DNA from: Escherichia coli
Lineage (GTDB): Bacteria; Pseudomonadota; Gammaproteobacteria; Enterobacterales; Enterobacteriaceae
Length of the DNA stretch: 64,000 nucleotides
Strand: one strand, 5' to 3'
Assembly: GCF_024502345.1 (NCBI RefSeq)
Contig: NZ_JALDNN010000001.1
Shown: positions 11,886 through 53,268 of the stretch, piece by piece
Layout: the number at the start of each line of letters is the position of its first letter
Position numbering within the stretch: position 1 is the first letter of the stretch
The notes under the pieces: model-generated
Databases searched by the model: none
What the model saw: only the letters and a program-made list of their open reading frames with translations
Told to the model about the DNA's origin: nothing
Translations under genes and position numbers: made by a program

Positions 11886-12095
11886 TTAGTCCTTAAATAC
11901 CTGCGCCAGCAGATTATGGAAATGGGCGATACCATGTTCGGAAATGCCGCTACCGCTACTGTCGGCCATGATGCGCCCCTGACCACGATAGCCACGCGAT
12001 TTCAGCCCTTTCTGTACGCTTTCAACCAGACGTAAATCTTCCGGACGGAACACATCGCGATACCACTCAATCAGCGATTTTTGCTCGTCGGTTAA
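11886..12095 (-). pseudogene. yeaW: 3-prime remnant of carnitine monooxygenase oxygenase subunit; N-terminal Rieske and catalytic domains absent
   Basis: 73-aa ORF ends 56 bp upstream of yeaX and its 5-prime end overlaps the dmlR start region; tail LTDEQKSLIEWYRDVFRPEDLRLVESVQKGLKSRGYRGQGRIMADSSGSGISEHGIAHFHNLLAQVFKD matches my recollection of the YeaW C-terminus. Confidence 0.6.
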
Positions 12096-12119
12096 CTGGT
12101 GAAACATAAAACACGAATC

Positions 12120-13043
12120 ATGAATAATTTACCGCTGCTGAATGATTTGCGCGTCTTTATGCTGGTGGCTCGCCGGGCTGGTTTTGCCGCCGTGGCGGAA
12201 GAACTGGGCGTTTCACCGGCGTTCGTCAGCAAGCGCATCGCCTTGCTGGAGCAAACGCTAAACGTGGTGTTGTTACACCGCACCACCCGCCGCGTCACCA
12301 TTACCGAAGAAGGAGAGCGGATTTATGAATGGGCGCAGCGGATTTTGCAGGATGTCGGTCAGATGATGGACGAACTTTCTGACGTGCGTCAGGTGCCACA
12401 GGGGATGCTGCGTATTATCAGCAGCTTTGGTTTTGGACGACAGGTGGTGGCTCCGGCGTTATCAGCGCTGGCGAAGGCGTATCCGCAACTGGAATTACGT
12501 TTTGATGTGGAAGACCGGCTGGTCGATTTGGTCAATGAAGGTGTCGATCTCGATATTCGCATTGGCGATGACATTGCCCCTAATTTAATCGCCCGCAAAC
12601 TGGCGACCAATTACCGCATTCTCTGCGCGTCGCCGGAATTTATTGCGCAACATGGCGCGCCGAAACATTTAACCGATCTTTCTGCATTGCCGTGCCTGGT
12701 CATTAAAGAGCGCGATCATCCTTTTGGTGTCTGGCAATTACGCAATAAAGAAGGCCACCATGCGATTAAAGTCACCGGCCCACTGTCGTCTAATCATGGA
12801 GAAATTGTCCATCAGTGGTGTCTCGATGGGCAGGGGATTGCTCTGCGTTCCTGGTGGGATGTTAGCGAAAACATTGCCAGTGGTCATTTAGTGCAAGTGC
12901 TACCGGAATATTACCAGCCAGCGAACGTCTGGGCCGTTTATGTTTCAAGGCTGGCGACGTCAGCGAAAGTGCGGATAACGGTAGAATTTTTACGCCAGTA
13001 TTTTGCCGAGCACTACCCGAATTTTTCACTGGAACATGCCTGA
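12120..13043 (+). CDS. dmlR: LysR-type transcriptional regulator (D-malate regulon)
   Basis: 307 aa from ATG at 12120 (MNNLPLLNDLRVFMLVARRAGFAAVAEELGVSPAFVSKR...). Confidence 0.85.
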   Translation: MNNLPLLNDLRVFMLVARRAGFAAVAEELGVSPAFVSKRIALLEQTLNVVLLHRTTRRVTITEEGERIYEWAQRILQDVGQMMDELSDVRQVPQGMLRIISSFGFGRQVVAPALSALAKAYPQLELRFDVEDRLVDLVNEGVDLDIRIGDDIAPNLIARKLATNYRILCASPEFIAQHGAPKHLTDLSALPCLVIKERDHPFGVWQLRNKEGHHAIKVTGPLSSNHGEIVHQWCLDGQGIALRSWWDVSENIASGHLVQVLPEYYQPANVWAVYVSRLATSAKVRITVEFLRQYFAEHYPNFSLEHA

Positions 13044-31957: not shown

Positions 31958-32230
31958 ATGAATCTTGATGACATTATCAACAGCATGACGCCTGAGGTAT
32001 ACCAGCGTTTGTCGACCGCCGTTGAACTGGGGAAATGGCCCGATGGCGTTGCGTTGACCGAGGAACAAAAAGCGAACTGCCTGCAACTGGTGATGCTGTG
32101 GCAAGCTCGCCATAATACCGAAGCACAGCATATGACAATTGACACAAATGGTCAGATGGTCATGAAGAGCAAACAGCAGTTAAAAGAAGATTTTGGTATC
32201 TCAGCAAAGCCTATTGCTATGTTTAAGTGA
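31958..32230 (+). CDS. yeaC: DUF1315 protein
   Basis: 90 aa from ATG at 31958 (MNLDDIINSMTPEVYQRL...). Confidence 0.8.
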   Translation: MNLDDIINSMTPEVYQRLSTAVELGKWPDGVALTEEQKANCLQLVMLWQARHNTEAQHMTIDTNGQMVMKSKQQLKEDFGISAKPIAMFK

Positions 32231-32390
32231 ATGAGTTATCTAGTATTTAAGCCTGTTATTAAGGGAGGGCAAATATACTTGTTAGGACGTCGTGTTTTAG
32301 CTGCAAGTAGGTTAAATGCAACACTGACAAGTATTATCTGGCCTACAATGTCATTGAGGAAATGTAGGCCAGAGATGAATTCAACTAATA

Positions 32391-40047: not shown

Positions 40048-41036
40048 ATGAAAAAAGTTTTATTACAAAACCATCCTGGGAGCGAGAAGTATTCTTTTAA
40101 TGGCTGGGAAATATTTAATAGTAATTTTGAACGGATGATTAAAGAAAATAAGGCCATGCTGCTTTGTAAGTGGGGGGGGGGTATTTAACATGTGTTGTCG
40201 CTGTAATGTTTGTATTCGCAGCGATAACATCCAACGGTTTGAATGAAAGAGGCCTGATTACCGCGGGATGCTCATTTCTTTATCTATTAATTATGATGGG
40301 GCTTATTGTTCGGGCCGGTTTTAAAGCAAAAAAAGAACAGCTGCATTATTATCAGGCTAAAGGTATTGAGCCGCTCAGTATCGAGAAATTACAGGCGCTA
40401 CAATTGATCACACCTTATCGATTCTATCATAAGCAATGGTCTGAAACGCTGGAGTTCTGGCCGCGAAAGCCTGAACCTGGCAAAGATACCTTCCAATATC
40501 ATGTGCTTCCTTTTTACTCGATCGATATCATAAGTAAAAGACGCGAGTCTTTAGAGGATCAATGGGGTATCGAAGATAGCGAAAGTTATTGTGCCTTAAT
40601 GGAGCATTTTCTTTCTGGCGACCATGGAGCCAATACCTTTAAAGCAAACATGGAGGAAGCCCCAGAGCAGGTTATCGCCTTGTTGAATAAATTTGCTGTT
40701 TTTCCCTCTGACTATATCTCTGATTGCGCTAATCATAGCTCCGGTAAATCCTCGGCGAAGCTAATATGGGCGGCGGAATTATCATGGATGACCTCGATAT
40801 CAAGCACAGCTTTTCAAAACGGGACAATTGAAGAAGAACTGGCCTGGCATTATATAATGCTTGCTTCTCGAAAGGCGCACGAGTTGTTCGAAAGCGAAGA
40901 AGATTATCAAAAAAATAGTCTAATGGGATTTCTTTACTGGCATATCTGCTGCTATCGCAGAAAGTTAACGGATGCTGAACTTGAAGCGTGTTATCGTTAC
41001 GACAAGCAGTTTTGGGTGATGCTGCCAACTTACTGA
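40048..41036 (+). pseudogene. ynjI: DUF1266 inner membrane protein gene, disrupted twice (poly-G frameshift and IS1 insertion near 3-prime end)
   Basis: Frame from ATG 40048 (MKKVLLQNHPGSEKYS...CKW) stops at 40188; downstream ORF 40170..41036 is in a different frame; the two join in-frame if the G10 run were G8 or G11; last 6 codons lie inside the IS1 inverted repeat. Confidence 0.75.
40172..40181 (+). repeat. G10 homopolymer tract inside ynjI
   Basis: Ten consecutive G read directly at 40172..40181. Confidence 0.95.
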
Positions 41037-41069
41037 TTTAGTGTATGATGGTGTTTTTGAGGTGCTCCA

Positions 41070-41345
41070 GTGGCTTCTGTTTCTATCAGCTGTCCCTCCT
41101 GTTCAGCTACTGACGGGGTGGTGCGTAACGGCAAAAGCACCGCCGGACATCAGCGCTATCTCTGCTCTCACTGCCGTAAAACATGGCAACTGCAGTTCAC
41201 TTACACCGCTTCTCAACCCGGTACGCACCAGAAAATCATTGATATGGCCATGAATGGCGTTGGATGCCGGGCAACCGCCCGAATTATGGGCGTTGGCCTC
41301 AACACGATTTTCCGCCATTTAAAAAACTCAGGCCGCAGTCGGTAA
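41070..41345 (+). CDS. insA: IS1 InsA
   Basis: 91-aa [46 protein letters not shown]... Confidence 0.93.
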
Positions 41346-41767
41346 CCTCGCGCATACAGCCGGGCAGTGACGTCATCGTCTGCGCGGAAATGGACGAACA
41401 GTGGGGATACGTCGGGGCTAAATCGCGCCAGCGCTGGCTGTTTTACGCGTATGACAGGCTCCGGAAGACGGTTGTTGCGCACGTATTCGGTGAACGCACT
41501 ATGGCGACGCTGGGGCGTCTTATGAGCCTGCTGTCACCCTTTGACGTGGTGATATGGATGACGGATGGCTGGCCGCTGTATGAATCCCGCCTGAAGGGAA
41601 AGCTGCACGTAATCAGCAAGCGATATACGCAGCGAATTGAGCGGCATAACCTGAATCTGAGGCAGCACCTGGCACGGCTGGGACGGAAGTCGCTGTCGTT
41701 CTCAAAATCGGTGGAGCTGCATGACAAAGTCATCGGGCATTATCTGAACATAAAACACTATCAATAA
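41264..41767 (+). CDS. insB: IS1 insB frame; expressed as InsAB' transposase by -1 frameshift from insA
   Basis: 167-aa ORF in -1 frame relative to insA. Confidence 0.88.
41321..41327 (+). promoter_or_regulatory. A6C programmed -1 ribosomal frameshift motif of IS1
   Basis: AAAAAAC at insA/insB frame overlap; insA reads LKNSGRSR*, -1 frame reads KKLRPQSV... Confidence 0.8.
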
Positions 41768-41880
41768 GTTGGAGTCATTACCCAGTTTTGGGAGCACTAC
41801 AGTAAGAAATGCCGTTGGCCCATAAGAAATGTTCCCTGGGGAGCATCATCCGTTAAATACTCATAAACGCCTGAAATTTT

Positions 41881-46296: not shown

Positions 46297-46950
46297 TTAT
46301 CGCAGTTTGTTGTAATTTTCTGACCACTGAGCCATATCCAGAACAGAACTATCAGCAGGAACATCCTGGAGATCGTGCGTTACCTGAACGACGGGGAGCG
46401 CCAGTTCGCGAACTTCGCTGAACACCCACTGGCGAAAATTATCGCGCAGAGCCACATCAAGACGGCTGAATGGCTCATCCAGTAGCAACGCTTTTGGCTG
46501 AGCGAGAAGGGCGCGAAGCAGAGCAACGCGCGCTCGCTGACCGCCAGACAAAGTGGCAGGATCCTGATGGAAAGCTCCGTCAAGGCCTGAACGCTCAAGT
46601 GCATCATTCACGGCATTACGTCGGGCATTCCCCTTAAGTGTCGCCGGTAGCGCCAGCAGTAAATTTTGCCCGACACTGAACTGGTCAAATAACAGTACAT
46701 CCTGGAAAAGAATGCCAATATGACGCTGTGCGGTGGGTAGCATGTCAATCCGTTGCTCATTGAGCCATAGCTCACCTGTACAAGAAAACTGTCCAGCCAG
46801 TGCACCAATCATCCATGAAAACAGAGTGGATTTTCCACAGCCAGACGGACCCATTAACGTGACAATGTCACCTTTATCCACCGTAAAGTTAACGTTTGTC
46901 AGCAAGCGGCTTTCTGGTAAACGTAGCGAAACATTTTTCACGCAGAGCAT
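46297..46950 (-). CDS. ynjD: ABC transporter ATP-binding protein
   Basis: 217 aa from MLCVKNVSLRL...; Walker A GPSGCGKST; start overlaps ynjC stop by 1 nt. Confidence 0.85.
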   Translation of the reverse strand: MLCVKNVSLRLPESRLLTNVNFTVDKGDIVTLMGPSGCGKSTLFSWMIGALAGQFSCTGELWLNEQRIDMLPTAQRHIGILFQDVLLFDQFSVGQNLLLALPATLKGNARRNAVNDALERSGLDGAFHQDPATLSGGQRARVALLRALLAQPKALLLDEPFSRLDVALRDNFRQWVFSEVRELALPVVQVTHDLQDVPADSSVLDMAQWSENYNKLR

Positions 46951-48485
46951 TAGCGGAGTCCTTGTCTGACATAACCTACCCATTTTGCGACTAACGCGGT
47001 CAGGGCAAAAATAGTAAGCGGTAATAGCAGTTGCCATAAAGCCTGGGCGGCGAGAATACCGTTGCTGCCGCCGCTGCTTAATGCCACCGCCTCAGTGGTG
47101 AGCGTCGGAAAACGCCCCGCGCCCAGCCACAGCGTCGGCATATACTGCGCAATACTGACTGAAAATCCCACCGCGAAGGCAATCAGCGTAGGGCGTAGCA
47201 TAAGCGGACATTTCACGTAAAAGAAGATTTTGGCCCGCGACCAGCCCAGTGTTTGTGCAATCAAAATTAACCGTGAATCAATGCGCTGCCAGGCGGGTTG
47301 CAGGATAAACAGCATCCACGGCATTACCCACAGCAGATGCCCCCAGACCACCGCCGTCCAGCTTCCATCCATGTTCAGCCATAGCGCCAGCGTGTACTGG
47401 CCCGCCACCAGCTGCAGTGCCGGTAATAAAATGGGCAACCATAGCCACAACTGGCGACGCTGTGGCCCCCATTCCAGCCACAGCAGTAACAGGAGCCAAG
47501 CGATGAATGTCGCCACCAGCCCCATTGTCAGGCTGTTGATGAGCGCTTCACTATTGATCGTCGACTGATCCGCGAGGATCGCCAGCAGAACCACACACAG
47601 CACACCGGTCAAGGGTAAAAAACTCGCCAGCGTAATGCCTGGCAATAAAGGCGTGGCAGGCTTACGAACGCCATCTACGCGGGGAATAGTACGCCGCCAG
47701 GTACACCATAGCAGATAGCCCAGCAAAACGTAGGCGGCGAGTAACAACATCAGCAGCAGGCTGGCGAGTGCGCCTTTCGTTTGTTGATCGGCGTCGCCCT
47801 GAGTTAACCACTGCCAGCTAATTACTGCCAGCGTCGGTGGATTACCTGGCCCAAGAATAATCGCCACATCCACGACCGACAGCGACCAGGCAACAATCGC
47901 CAGCATCGCCATTGCCAGCGCAGGCGCGACGGAGGGCAACAGCAGCCAGTTCAGGCATTGCCAGCGGCTGTAGCCCAGCGAATCCAGCACGATGACTTGC
48001 TGTAAAAGCCGTTTTTCACTCAATACCGCTGCTAAGATCCACAGCAGAAATGCGCTTTCTTTCACCGCCAGCGTGAAGCCCAGCCCAATACCCAATTTGT
48101 CCATTGGCGGAGTGAAATACGGGAAATAGTCATAAAGCAGCCCTCCGTCAGCAAAGAGCAGAAGGGCGCTGGTGGCAAAAGCCACATGGGGAATGGCGAG
48201 CAGCCACGGCAGACGGGTGCACATACGCTGCCATTTCGGCCCAGGCCACAGCGCCACAATCACCAGCAGGGCAATCAACAACGCCCCGACCGCCGCGATG
48301 GTTGTCGACACCAGCGTTGCCAGTAATGCCTGCGGTAACTGTGGATCGGCAAATAACGCCTGCCAGTGTGTCAACGACAAAGCAGGCGATATCAGCGTGA
48401 GAGCTGCCGGGATCAGCGGTGCATAAATCACCGCCACCATCGCCCACAGCAAAAAGATTAATGCGTACCGTAACGGTGTAGCCAT
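46950..48485 (-). CDS. ynjC: ABC transporter permease (fused two-domain)
   Basis: 511 aa from MATPLRYALIFLLW... Confidence 0.85.
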   Translation of the reverse strand: MATPLRYALIFLLWAMVAVIYAPLIPAALTLISPALSLTHWQALFADPQLPQALLATLVSTTIAAVGALLIALLVIVALWPGPKWQRMCTRLPWLLAIPHVAFATSALLLFADGGLLYDYFPYFTPPMDKLGIGLGFTLAVKESAFLLWILAAVLSEKRLLQQVIVLDSLGYSRWQCLNWLLLPSVAPALAMAMLAIVAWSLSVVDVAIILGPGNPPTLAVISWQWLTQGDADQQTKGALASLLLMLLLAAYVLLGYLLWCTWRRTIPRVDGVRKPATPLLPGITLASFLPLTGVLCVVLLAILADQSTINSEALINSLTMGLVATFIAWLLLLLWLEWGPQRRQLWLWLPILLPALQLVAGQYTLALWLNMDGSWTAVVWGHLLWVMPWMLFILQPAWQRIDSRLILIAQTLGWSRAKIFFYVKCPLMLRPTLIAFAVGFSVSIAQYMPTLWLGAGRFPTLTTEAVALSSGGSNGILAAQALWQLLLPLTIFALTALVAKWVGYVRQGLR

Positions 48486-49624
48486 TCTTGTTCCAGCGCA
48501 TTTACCCAACCTGCGTGCGGTTCAGCCAGTACCGGCGGCAGATCTTGCGGCATTCTTGATTGCAATGTTTCGCGCTGCCCATCAGGCAGTTTTTGCGGAT
48601 CGAGAACAGAAGGATCGCCCCAGACAGCGGGATCTGCTTTACGCAATTGCGCATCGGGTGAGAGCAAGAAATTGGCAACTACCTTCGCCGCAGCACTGGC
48701 ATTCGCGTTGGCAGGAATGGTGACGAAATGCACGTTGCCAATCGTCCCCTCGCGAAAGCCAAAACTGTAACTGCTTGCAGGCAAATCGCCGCTGGCGATT
48801 TTTTGCTGCGCATGCGCGGGGTTAAAGGTCAGCGACAGGCGCAATGTGCCGGCTTTCAGCAGAGCATCCATCCGCGCGGGCGAAGGCGGGAAATCCTTTC
48901 CTTCGCGCCACAAATACGGATGCAGCGCATCAAGATATTGCCACAAGGGAGCAGTGACGCGGGCGAAAGTCGCATCGTCCGGCGCTTCTTTTAATGCGGC
49001 GGGATCGGCCGTCAGCATAATCAGCAACTGTTCAAGAAACGCCGTGCCGGTAAAGTCCGGTGGGCGCGGATAGGTAACCGTGCCGGGATTGGCTTTAGCA
49101 AACTCCAGTAAGGCTTGCGGCGTTTGTGGTGGCTGTGGCGTAACATCGCGGCGGGCGATAAATGTCAGTTGTGCGCCCCCCCAGGGCGATTCAGCCCCTT
49201 CTGTAGGCACTGAAAAATCTTCCCGCACCGGCAGCTGTGTGTCGACATAGCGCCAGTTGGGCAGAGTCTCTGCCCAGTCGGTTTGCAGTAAATTGGCCTC
49301 TTTTAAGGTGCGGAAGTTTTCGCCGTTCACCCAGAGTAGATCCACCGAGCCGCCCGTTTTACGTCCGGCTGCGGCTTCGGTCTGAATGCGCTTCACCGCG
49401 TCTGCGGCATCCGCCAGACGGACAATCTTCAGGTTTATAGCGTAATGGGTTTTCATCTCGCCGCTCACCCAGTCGAGATAGCGGTTAATTGCGGTATCGC
49501 CGCCCCAGGCGTTAAACCAGACGGTTTGCCCTTTGGCCTCATTTTTAATTTCTTGCCAGTCACTGGCATATGTTGCCAGAGAAAACAGCGATAACAATCC
49601 CAGCAACCACCCACAATGGCGCAT
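48458..49624 (-). CDS. ynjB: ABC transporter periplasmic substrate-binding protein
   Basis: 388 aa, signal peptide. Confidence 0.85.
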   Translation of the reverse strand: MRHCGWLLGLLSLFSLATYASDWQEIKNEAKGQTVWFNAWGGDTAINRYLDWVSGEMKTHYAINLKIVRLADAADAVKRIQTEAAAGRKTGGSVDLLWVNGENFRTLKEANLLQTDWAETLPNWRYVDTQLPVREDFSVPTEGAESPWGGAQLTFIARRDVTPQPPQTPQALLEFAKANPGTVTYPRPPDFTGTAFLEQLLIMLTADPAALKEAPDDATFARVTAPLWQYLDALHPYLWREGKDFPPSPARMDALLKAGTLRLSLTFNPAHAQQKIASGDLPASSYSFGFREGTIGNVHFVTIPANANASAAAKVVANFLLSPDAQLRKADPAVWGDPSVLDPQKLPDGQRETLQSRMPQDLPPVLAEPHAGWVNALEQEWLHRYGTH

Positions 49625-49633
49625 CATCTCTCC

Positions 49634-50182
49634 TTAAGAACGTTTTTCCGGAATACGGCACAGTCCCTGAGCGGGAATGTCCATGGCAGAATTAAAACGA
49701 GCCGACAGGTTTTGCAGGCCGATCAATGCCGTCAGTTCGGTGAGCGCCTGAGCGTCAAAATGCGCAGCCAGTCGGGTACGCAGGGCATCATCGACCGTTG
49801 GCGGCGTTACGCTTGCGGCTTCGGCGTACTCCAGCGCCAGCCGTTCTTCATCGCTAAAGAGCGGGCTTTGCCGCCAGTCAGCCACTGCCAGCAGTTTATC
49901 GCTGCTGCCGGTGCGCTCGGCGACTTTCATACTGGTGATATCCACACAAAACTCACACAGGCACATTTGCGCAATGCGCGCGCTGACAAGCGATCGTACT
50001 ACCGGATCGAGCGGTGAGCGTTTGCGCTCCAGCCAGCCAACAAACATCGACACCAGATAAAAGATAAACGGGATCCGCCCCCACCAGCGAATGGGGCTTA
50101 GCACCTCGCCGTAATGGCGACGATGCAGCCACGCCTGCGGACGTAAAATGAAAGGAATTTTGCTAAGCGGCGGTAAACCCAT
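49634..50182 (-). CDS. ynjA: carboxymuconolactone decarboxylase / AhpD-like family protein
   Basis: 182-aa ORF; start overlaps ydjZ stop by 1 nt. Confidence 0.85.
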   Translation of the reverse strand: MGLPPLSKIPFILRPQAWLHRRHYGEVLSPIRWWGRIPFIFYLVSMFVGWLERKRSPLDPVVRSLVSARIAQMCLCEFCVDITSMKVAERTGSSDKLLAVADWRQSPLFSDEERLALEYAEAASVTPPTVDDALRTRLAAHFDAQALTELTALIGLQNLSARFNSAMDIPAQGLCRIPEKRS

Positions 50183-50889
50183 CAGGCATTCCTCTTCTGG
50201 CGCTCAAGCCATATTTTCTTCGCCATAAAAATCACCACGGTCAGGGCAAACAGAATAAACAGTCCGGTGACAAACCAGAAGGTACCGCCTGTTAACATGC
50301 TGCCCGCCCAGGAATAAACAATAGTCGCCGGTAACTGACCAAGCCCGGTGGCGATAAAAAACGAGCGAAAACGTATTGAAGTCAAACCGGCAGCATAGCT
50401 GATTGGATCGAAAGGGACAAAAGGCAATAACCGACAGACCAGGATGGTGTGTTTGCCGTAGCGAGTGAAAAAGCCGTCCATACTGTCAAGTACGGTTTTG
50501 CCGGTTAATTTTTCCACCACTTCGCGGCCCATCACTCTGGCGATAAAAAAGCACAGTGCCGCGCCGGCCATCGAACTGGTCCACGACAGCAAGCCGCCCC
50601 AGAACGCGCCAAACAGCGACGCATTGGCAAAGGTGATCAAAAACGCAGGTAGCGGTGCAGCAATGGCCTGTAAAATCATCAACAAGAACGAGACAACTGC
50701 CGCCAGTGCGCCGTAAGACTGAATAAAGCGTTCTATACCCTGTTGGTCCACGGCGGCAAACGCCGCAACGCTGCGATTGATAAACTCATGGACGCCGGGA
50801 AGCAGCGCCCATGCCAGCAGCATAGCGAACAACAGGATGATGAGGGTTATACGGTAGTACCAGATTTTACGCGATTGCATCTTCATCAT
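50182..50889 (-). CDS. ydjZ: TVP38/TMEM64 (DedA-related) inner membrane protein
   Basis: 235-aa ORF. Confidence 0.85.
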   Translation of the reverse strand: MMKMQSRKIWYYRITLIILLFAMLLAWALLPGVHEFINRSVAAFAAVDQQGIERFIQSYGALAAVVSFLLMILQAIAAPLPAFLITFANASLFGAFWGGLLSWTSSMAGAALCFFIARVMGREVVEKLTGKTVLDSMDGFFTRYGKHTILVCRLLPFVPFDPISYAAGLTSIRFRSFFIATGLGQLPATIVYSWAGSMLTGGTFWFVTGLFILFALTVVIFMAKKIWLERQKRNA

Positions 50890-50903
50890 CCTTTATCCTG
50901 GCT

Positions 50904-51581
50904 TTATTCGGTGATTTTAAAGGTAACCGTTGCCAGCGTGTTATCCGCCGGGAGAACCGAGGCATTGCCTTTGAATTTAACTTCACCTCGTTTTTCAACC
51001 GCACCATAAGTGTATGTTGCATTGCTGACGATGCCGACCGGGCAGCTATCCAGACACACCAGGCAACCCGTTTTCTTCTCTTCTGCTGCCGTTAAATTAC
51101 CGCCAAAGCGCATGTCCAGTTTCTTGCCATTACTGTCAACAATCACTTCATCGAAGGAATACGTTTTTGCCGCCCCTTGCCAGTTGACCGAAATATCCAG
51201 TTTGCTGCCCGTGACATGAGTCGTTTCTTTATTATCCATCGTCATGTTTTCGCCCGGCGTACCACCTGCCTCTTTCAGGGCTTCATAAAATGCTTTCGGG
51301 GTCGCATAACCCATAAACAGCGATTTATGTCCGTTGGAGCCATCTTTAAACACAATACCGTGACGAGTGTCGTCGGTGAGGAAACGACCATTAATTTGCA
51401 CCAGCATGGTTACCGTATGGTTATTGGCATCGACGCGCAGCGGTTGGCTGTTCGAAAGTCCGTCGTATTCCACTTTTGCCGCCGTATTCTCTTTTTGATC
51501 GCAGCCGCTAAGCCCAGCAACAGCCAGTAAGCAGAGTGCAGTCAGTCCTTTTTTCCATGACACTGAATAATGTTGCAACAT
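50904..51581 (-). CDS. ydjY: putative lipoprotein with C-terminal Cys cluster
   Basis: 225 aa from MLQHYSVSWKKG... (AAGGA upstream); lipobox LSGC. Confidence 0.8.
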   Translation of the reverse strand: MLQHYSVSWKKGLTALCLLAVAGLSGCDQKENTAAKVEYDGLSNSQPLRVDANNHTVTMLVQINGRFLTDDTRHGIVFKDGSNGHKSLFMGYATPKAFYEALKEAGGTPGENMTMDNKETTHVTGSKLDISVNWQGAAKTYSFDEVIVDSNGKKLDMRFGGNLTAAEEKKTGCLVCLDSCPVGIVSNATYTYGAVEKRGEVKFKGNASVLPADNTLATVTFKITE

Positions 51582-51585
51582 CGTT

Positions 51586-52295
51586 CTATCCTTCATTTTT
51601 TGGGTGAGTAAGTGGGTTGCGGCGCGAAGCAGACAGATCCACATGTTTGTGTCGGGCGTAGAGTTTGGCGAGCTGGACGAGAATAAACAGCGCCAGGCCC
51701 GCCAGACAGAGTTGTAAAATAAAGCGCAGCGTAATGCCTTCATTGGCGAGATCGCTTGCCATCACGGTATAAATAACAATACCGGGCAGGGTCGTGAGTG
51801 CCGAAATAAGGGTATAAGGCCAGAAGGCGATTGTGGTTAATCCGTAAGCGTAATTTTGAATATTGTAAGGAAACAACGGGATTAAGCGGGTCAGAATAAG
51901 AAAATCAATACCGTTACGCGCGATGCCTTTTTCAATGGCCTGGAAGGTATGGCTATGGCCAACGTATTTCAGCAGTAAATCACGTCCCAGCCAGCGCGCC
52001 AGCAGGAATGAGCACGAGGAGGCCAGCGTGGCGGCAATTAATGAGAGTAGTGTTCCTAAGAGCGGCCAAAAACTATTCCTCCAGCGATCACCAGTATGCT
52101 TCCTGGTAACAGAAAGAGGGTGGCAATGATGAATAACAGAATATAGAGGCTATAACCGAACAATCCGCTCTGGCGGATGAGTGTCTGTAAGTGGGGTAAA
52201 TCGGTGAGCAGATCGAATAAACCGAAAGCGTGGATAGCGTAAATGACCAGCGCAAAAATAAGACAGGCAAAAAGAAATTTACGCTCAGCGTTCAT
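51586..52295 (-). pseudogene. ydjX: TVP38/TMEM64 family membrane protein gene with -1 frameshift
   Basis: N-terminal frame (MNAERKFLFA...GGIVFGRS*) stops at 52056; C-terminal frame continues PLLGTLLSLIAATLASS... to 51586; locus is 710 nt, one short of a multiple of 3. Confidence 0.75.
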
Positions 52296-52461
52296 CGTGG
52301 AGTTTCCTATATCAAACTTGATAATAGAGAAGTGGTCAGACAACTAAAAACGCAGAGACGGTATAACAAAGGACGGCAGGCAACAAATCATTACTGACAG
52401 TTTGTTGATTTTTCTCAAGGTTAATTCTCCTGACCCAGTTTGAGCCAGGAGAGCTGTTAAA

Positions 52462-53268
52462 TTAGCGGCGGAAGGTCGCCCAGACGGGGGCGTGATCGGA
52501 CGGTTTTTCCATGCTGCGGATTTCATAGTCGATGCCGGTTTCTACGCAACATTCTGCCAGCGGTTGGCTGGCGAGCAGCAGGTCGATGCGCAGACCACGG
52601 TTATCGTCAAAACCTTTTGAGCGGTAATCAAACCATGAGAAACGATCTGCTGTTTGCGGATTCGCATGGCGGAAGGTATCGACCAACCCCCAGCTCATCA
52701 GCCTGTCCATCCATTCGCGCTCTTCCGGCAGGAAAGAGCATTTACCGGTACGCAGCCAGCGCTTACGGTTTTCTTCGCCAATGCCAATATCCAGGTCGCC
52801 AGGACTGATATTCATATCGCCCATAATCAGCACCGGATTTTCACGCTTGAGTTCGGTTTCCAGGTAGTTTTGCAGATTCTGATAAAACTGCGCTTTTGCC
52901 GGGAATTTTATCGGATGGTCGCGGCTTTCACCCTGCGGGAAGTAACCGTTGATCACGGTGACATTGCCCAGCGGCGAGGGGATTTCCGCCATAATAATCC
53001 GCCGCTGCGCCTCTTCGTCGTCACCGGGAAAGCCGCGACGCACGGCAATCGGCGTCTCTTTGGTCAGCAGCGCCACGCCATAATGGCCTTTCTGCCCGTG
53101 ATAAAACACGTTGTAGCCGAGCTTCGCCACCTCTTCGAGCGGAAACATATCGTCATGAACTTTTGTCTCCTGCAGGCCAATCACATCCGGTTGGTGCTTT
53201 TCGACGATGGCTTTAAGCTGGTGGGGCCTGGCGCGCAGGCCGTTGATATTAAAAGAGACAAATTTCAT
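52462..53268 (-). CDS. xthA: exodeoxyribonuclease III
   Basis: 268 aa from [18 protein letters not shown]... Confidence 0.95.

Follow-up and report, generated by a model that had tools for sequence, protein, structure and literature searches.

The ydjX locus and its gene neighbourhood

We analysed a stretch of 64,000 nucleotides of Escherichia coli DNA (assembly GCF_024502345.1, contig NZ_JALDNN010000001.1), hereafter referred to as the window. The gene order xthA-ydjX-ydjY-ydjZ-ynjABCD is the same in the window, in K-12 and in FDAARGOS_943, and, since the flanking genes are arranged as in K-12, the interrupted gene was identified as ydjX. The features of the locus are as follows.

52462..53268, minus strand: xthA (exonuclease III), the intact upstream neighbour
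52405..52418, minus strand: FNR-box-like sequence TTGAGAAAAATCAA upstream of ydjX, from comparison with the FNR consensus
51586..52295, minus strand: ydjX pseudogene of 710 nt (the intact gene has 711 nt, 236 codons plus stop)
52056..52295, minus strand: N-terminal stub ORF of 79 amino acids (MNAERKF...GIVFGRS)
52064..52065, minus strand: deletion site, CC where intact genes have CCC, at codons G77-P78 (GGC CCG)
52056..52058, minus strand: premature stop codon TAG closing the 79-codon N-terminal stub
51586..52065, minus strand: out-of-frame C-terminal remnant (P78-G236 plus stop), with most of the VTT domain
46297..51581, minus strand: ydjY, ydjZ, ynjA, ynjB, ynjC and ynjD, the downstream operon genes, all full length

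The gene starts with the ATG at 52295 on the minus strand. The stub frame, which reads MNAERKFLF...LPGSILVIAGGIVFGRS, closes as ...AGGIVFGRS* with the TAG at 52058-52056 after 79 codons, exactly where an earlier note on this DNA had placed its end. The second frame reads (P)LLGTLLSLIAATLASS...THPKNEG and terminates at the TAG at 51588-51586; it is the frame that contains PLLGTLLSLIAATLASS.... For this C-terminal piece the earlier note had given 177 codons, a figure that has to be corrected: the homologous part is 159 codons long (P78 to G236), and the same frame can be followed back through 187 codons before a stop is reached, at 52152.

The note had further proposed that a single-base deletion frameshifts ydjX as the first gene of the ydjXYZ-ynjABCD cluster, that the locus is one base short of a multiple of three, and that one added C would restore a continuous ORF of 236 codons; as a check, it suggested alignment to intact orthologues. 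This alignment contained exactly one gap (GGCCCG vs GGCCG) and, together with the conserved gene order and the length of the locus (52295..51586, 710 against 711 nt), bore out all three proposals. In comparison with FDAARGOS_943, the top match, ydjX of the window is 99.7% identical and differs, besides this gap, by one synonymous SNP. The gap is the sole indel across a 22 kb collinear alignment with K-12, and the two halves of the gene have 97-98% protein identity to K-12 YdjX. With the C restored, the 236-codon ORF contains the Pfam VTT domain (PF09335) at residues 63-179, with a score of 93 bits (E = 2e-26; cut-off 33.9). The stub retains 15 of the approx. 117 VTT/DedA domain residues and gave no domain match in the Pfam test. 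Members of the family have an unbroken ORF of about 236 codons. In the window, ydjX carries one indel against its close intact orthologues, which leads to a premature stop; it is thus to be classed as a frameshift pseudogene and not among the working members of the family.

Separate expression of the C-terminal part was considered and rejected for the window, the frame of which has no ATG, GTG or TTG ahead of the TTG at 51876; most of the VTT domain therefore cannot be made separately. The sole ORF in the remnant, 96 amino acids from this TTG, reaches 24.2 bits against VTT_dom, under the cut-off of 33.9. Haplotypes other than that of the window have a GTG at 51963, from which gene callers predict an ORF of 125 amino acids; this product is without the first third of the VTT domain.

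The rest of the operon is undamaged. In tblastn searches with the K-12 proteins against the window, all six downstream genes gave gap-free matches of 96-99.6% identity, with no stop or frameshift. The consensus for FNR binding is TTGAT-N4-ATCAA, and the similar TTGAGAAAAATCAA upstream of ydjX contains no variable site in the SNP table of the haplotypes compared. The operon ydjXYZ-ynjABCD has been listed as FNR-activated, with the site at -60.5 (PMC3688515), and TTGAGAAAAATCAA is likely, from its sequence, to be this mapped site.

Allele or assembly error

Whether the deletion is a real pseudogene allele or a homopolymer error had been left undecided in the earlier note, and the comparison with public data settles the question toward a real allele. 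Megablast of the locus gave near full-length ydjX matches in 5,352 of the 5,426 complete E. coli genomes; the matches listed all bear the annotation ydjX, TVP38/TMEM64 family protein, and exceed the query by one base each. Chance plays no part here, the window differing in a fixed manner from some 5,350 intact orthologues. A public protein collection nevertheless contains the 79-aa stub in its exact form, encoded on at least 14 contigs, and every fetched locus encoding it carried the identical deletion when checked base by base. The loci with the deletion confirmed in DNA (L003-L012, L016, L019, L024-L026 and L029-L031) represent 14 independent samples from different projects, assemblers and isolates, namely Illumina-type ENA metagenome assemblies (metaSPAdes, MEGAHIT), Logan run assemblies and NCBI isolates. 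The two NCBI isolate assemblies, GCA_050022275.1 and GCA_001484235.1, show 100% identity with the window, over 12.2 kb and 15.0 kb, respectively.

Within the complete genomes, an 81-mer spanning the deletion was found in none of the 5,426 RefSeq E. coli entries, either in the local version of the window or in the commoner EC2001-like version, and the allele is therefore rare. A 30-mer with the deletion had zero exact matches in one genome per GTDB species and zero in JGI metagenome contigs.

An alternative reading is that the source assembly contains a homopolymer miscall and that the strain truly has CCC and an intact ydjX. The deletion does fall in a short C run and is carried by no complete RefSeq genome, and a sister assembly of the same series (L020) has another 1-bp deletion, in ydjZ, which may hint at indel-prone data. 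However, a run of three bases is an atypical site for a short-read error, the deletion is the only indel in the 22 kb compared with K-12, so that the assembly is not indel-ridden, and two isolates show no difference from the window in 12-15 kb. Most importantly, the same deletion was recovered in the 14 independent samples from different pipelines, which makes an error specific to this assembly very unlikely; we give the miscall very little credence.

Age and haplotypes of the deletion

The window is 98.2% identical to K-12, and its top complete-genome match reaches 98.6% over positions 40000-64000 and 99.6% over positions 1-24000. The exact protein variants of the window that were looked up proved uncommon, each being found on 15-44 contigs, all labelled E. 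coli. A Shigella origin, initially considered in view of the IS1 element and of top identities to complete E. coli genomes of no more than 98.6-98.8%, was rejected on these labels and on the different lesions in the ydjX fragments of Shigella. Relatives were recovered through contigs carrying the exact AstD variant of the window, and both deleted and intact copies of ydjX were found among them. Three of these relatives with intact ydjX are close: L021 (SRR31599066) is one SNP and the extra C away from the window in 13.4 kb, L020 (GCA_050029375.1) four SNPs and the extra C over 15 kb, and L017 16 SNPs. As the nearest intact relatives are only 1-4 SNPs away in 13-15 kb, the deletion is, by this measure, very recent within the clone of the window.

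The deletion was, furthermore, found on at least four local haplotypes with intact counterparts. The first is that of the window itself, with L020 and L021 as its intact twins; the L005-type haplotype with the deletion is 0.3% diverged. L003, L007 and L010 have a patch of approximately 450-690 bp around the deletion within a mainstream EC2001-like background. L029, also deleted, has the haplotype of EC2001 and L033; a site at which it departs from the window lies 10 nt from the deletion. The deleted L030 shares its haplotype with L028, a contig with a different ydjX lesion. In relation to the flanking SNPs at 52176 and 51961, the deletion was seen in all four combinations.

A single origin with spread by short-tract recombination could account for the mosaics L003, L007 and L010, but not easily for L029 and L030, both of which depart from the window 10 nt away from the deletion and elsewhere agree with intact haplotypes; recurrence was preferred. 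The haplotypes of these two are best explained by independent recurrence, so that the same loss of CCC to CC has probably arisen more than once in E. coli. Metagenome contigs may mix co-resident strains, and chimeric contigs are a possible source of the L003, L007 and L010 mosaics; the haplotype argument is consequently weaker for some of the contigs, though not for the isolates. A quasi-palindrome or hairpin hotspot at the deletion site was rejected, the DNA folds of both alleles being weaker than those of shuffled controls. With E. coli assemblies as numerous as they are in public data, it would be unsurprising for the same short-homopolymer indel to arise a few times in a gene that is dispensable. 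Taken as a whole, we consider it highly probable that the window carries a genuine loss-of-function allele of ydjX, a dispensable gene, in an uncommon E. coli clone, and that this allele is recent and most likely recurrent.

Other lesions in ydjX

Further lesions were found by searching with the 125-aa C-terminal ORF, which gene callers predict only where the upstream part of the gene is disrupted. At least six other independent ydjX lesions, located in codons 76-112, are present in public E. coli assemblies, along with a seventh in Shigella sonnei. Those in E. coli are listed below.

L023: +T at codon 112
L027: 4-bp duplication at codon 87
L028: 13-bp deletion at codon 84
L032 and L033: no indel; N-terminal ORF of only 101 aa, which points to an in-frame stop behind codon 101
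L034: T5 to T6 at codon 76, directly beside the deletion site of the window
L036: 2-bp insertion at codon 90

One more contig, L035, with several indels in ydjX, has the appearance of a noisy assembly from long reads. The ydjX entries of S. boydii and S. flexneri are fragments that stop at contig ends, which suggests IS insertions. Such a number of lesions would be expected if ydjX is dispensable and purifying selection on it is weak, and is by itself no proof of adaptation.

Recoding and phase variation

A split frame may also reflect recoding, and in this case a full-length product could be made from the deleted allele. The candidate event would be a slip by -1 at the T5 run just ahead of the deletion (GTT TTT G), yielding near full-length YdjX with a G77W substitution: within GTTTTTG, the tRNA-Phe on TTT is able to slip back by one base and pair anew, and the -1 frame gives W-P-L-L-G and rejoins the C-terminal frame. 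The zero frame, however, reads ATA GTT TTT GGC CGC TCT TAG and is without an X XXY YYZ heptamer, no stable downstream structure was predicted (shuffled sequences gave stronger DNA folds than the site), and the site gave no Rfam match. The next codon, GGC, is common, so that no pause is expected. Moreover, the allele is derived and rare, and thousands of orthologues encode YdjX in one frame. We regard the chance of such slippage as negligible. Programmed ribosomal frameshifting in the strict sense was rejected, as the site has no slippery sequence with a stimulatory element and the split is not conserved in the orthologues.

A phase-variable homopolymer locus was rejected likewise. Contingency loci usually have tracts of 7 or more nucleotides; the tract here is only CCC in intact genes and CC in the window, and with three nucleotides phase variation of ydjX is unlikely. 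Two other types of element were sought at the site and dismissed: an RNA element (no Rfam match above noise) and an internal promoter (no promoter-like site, and a lone terminator-like match at chance level). As a pseudogene, the broken ydjX is unremarkable and of a familiar type.

Other differences along the window

Several further differences were recorded outside ydjX. ynjI (40048-41863, plus strand) has two lesions relative to K-12. One is a G10 tract at 40172-40181, which shifts the frame at approximately codon 43 and is represented in K-12 by GGGGGTTT, two bases shorter. The other is a 768-bp IS1 element (IS1B-like) at 41015-41782, inserted near codon 320; a direct repeat, CAGTTTTG, stands on either side of it (41007-41014 and 41783-41790). 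E. coli SE11 has the identical G10 form, and its ynjI is flagged as frameshifted in RefSeq; the tract difference is therefore widespread.

At around 12093-12122, the window has a 3.7-kb deletion relative to K-12 and all best-matching complete E. coli genomes, which takes out dmlA, yeaV and ~296 codons from the start of yeaW; of the latter gene only the final 78 codons are left, next to dmlR. At 32228-32322, the window does not have the ydjE-ydjL cluster for sugar-acid utilisation (9.1 kb in K-12), and approximately 94 nt lie between pncA and yeaC instead. yoaC (around 3333, minus strand) has an A7 run against A8 in K-12, and its C-terminal quarter is in another frame than in the K-12 annotation.

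In ynjC, the segment 47610-47863 resembles a recombination patch with sharp divergence: position 47863 is exactly where several metagenome contigs break off or show scaffold gaps, and L006 has 28 SNPs within approximately 250 bp of this segment. In the sister isolate L020, one C of CACCGG in ydjZ is lost at the equivalent of window position 50266, and the called product has 215 aa instead of 235 aa.

Consequences of the deletion and the question of selection

The loss of one C from the CCC run at codons 77-78 would end translation after 79 residues. The stub would keep the N-terminal helices and 15 residues of the VTT/DedA domain, and the remaining 159 codons would be left out of frame without a plausible start. 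With so few domain residues kept, the protein is, from its predicted sequence, almost certainly null. E. coli has eight paralogues of the DedA superfamily, among them ydjZ, two genes downstream of ydjX; YdjX and YdjZ cluster with the eukaryotic TMEM41/Tvp38 proteins. In a heterologous test of all eight, strong undecaprenyl-phosphate transport activity came from DedA alone. With YdjX being one of these eight, YdjZ included, its loss is probably tolerated. Single mutants of the family are reportedly viable, as Boughner and Doerrler are said to have described in 2012, the family being essential only collectively.

Neither the promoter region nor any of the six genes downstream is damaged in this allele, but polarity could reduce the expression of these genes. 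The start codon of ydjY lies at 51581-51579 and has its own Shine-Dalgarno-like GAAGGA, and 474 untranslated nt separate it from the premature stop of ydjX. It is possible that Rho-dependent polarity through these 474 nt lowers the expression of ydjY-ynjD.

Another possible explanation for the pattern of losses is that inactivation of ydjX was positively selected in some gut E. coli, as opposed to neutral decay. The same deletion on four or more haplotypes with intact twins, the other independent lesions clustered in codons 76-112, the independent frameshift at codon 139 in S. sonnei and the 1-bp deletion in the paralogue ydjZ of a sister isolate only 4 SNPs away may all be read in this manner. 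The public collection is huge, however, and a few dozen disrupted copies with some recurrence at one site would be expected in it for any dispensable gene; the full-length gene, furthermore, is kept in the great majority of complete genomes (5,352 of 5,426). We therefore hold positive selection to be unlikely. A narrower version, in which the codon-78 deletion is a recurrent, selected switch-off of ydjX and perhaps, by polarity, of the whole FNR-activated operon in gut E. coli, appears slightly less likely again. The recurrence on different backgrounds, together with the ydjZ frameshift of the sister isolate, leaves a small chance that loss of the operon is favoured. If true, such selected loss would offer a first handle, from natural selection, on what this DedA/TVP38 operon does.

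Under the preferred reading, a genuine allele of a dispensable gene, the practical consequence concerns annotation: ydjX should be called a pseudogene here, and neither be split into two hypothetical ORFs nor be 'corrected' as an error. The allele also represents a probable natural null of one of the eight DedA-superfamily genes of E. coli, for which public data contain intact relatives that are almost isogenic, and the pairing of deleted and intact genomes could help to ask what the ydjXYZ-ynjABCD operon does.

Comparison with known systems

The closest known counterpart is the intact ydjX of K-12 (b1750) and of about 5,350 other complete E. coli genomes, which encodes a membrane protein of the TVP38/TMEM64 branch of the DedA superfamily and occupies the same chromosomal position as the gene in the window. 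In contrast to it, the window is without one C, and the ORF is split into the 79-codon stub and the 159-codon remnant.

Among systems in which a full-length product requires two frames to be joined, dnaX (-1), prfB (+1) and the contingency genes resemble ydjX of the window, a homopolymer change included. Unlike dnaX and prfB, the window gene has no slippery heptamer or stimulatory element and its split is absent from the orthologues; unlike the contingency genes, its tract is 2-3 nt long.

The other E. coli lesions in ydjX, like that of the window, hit the first third to half of the gene and leave the rest of the operon, but each of them is a different mutation. In S. sonnei, ydjX (152-aa product, for instance EIQ53429.1) has also lost 1 bp in a CCC run, and the shift enters the same alternative frame as in the window, with the tail RCFLTIFKITLTD*. 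This loss is common to several S. sonnei isolates; with another position in the gene (codon 139, ATC CCG, corresponding to approximately 51880 in the window) and another lineage, it represents an independent event.
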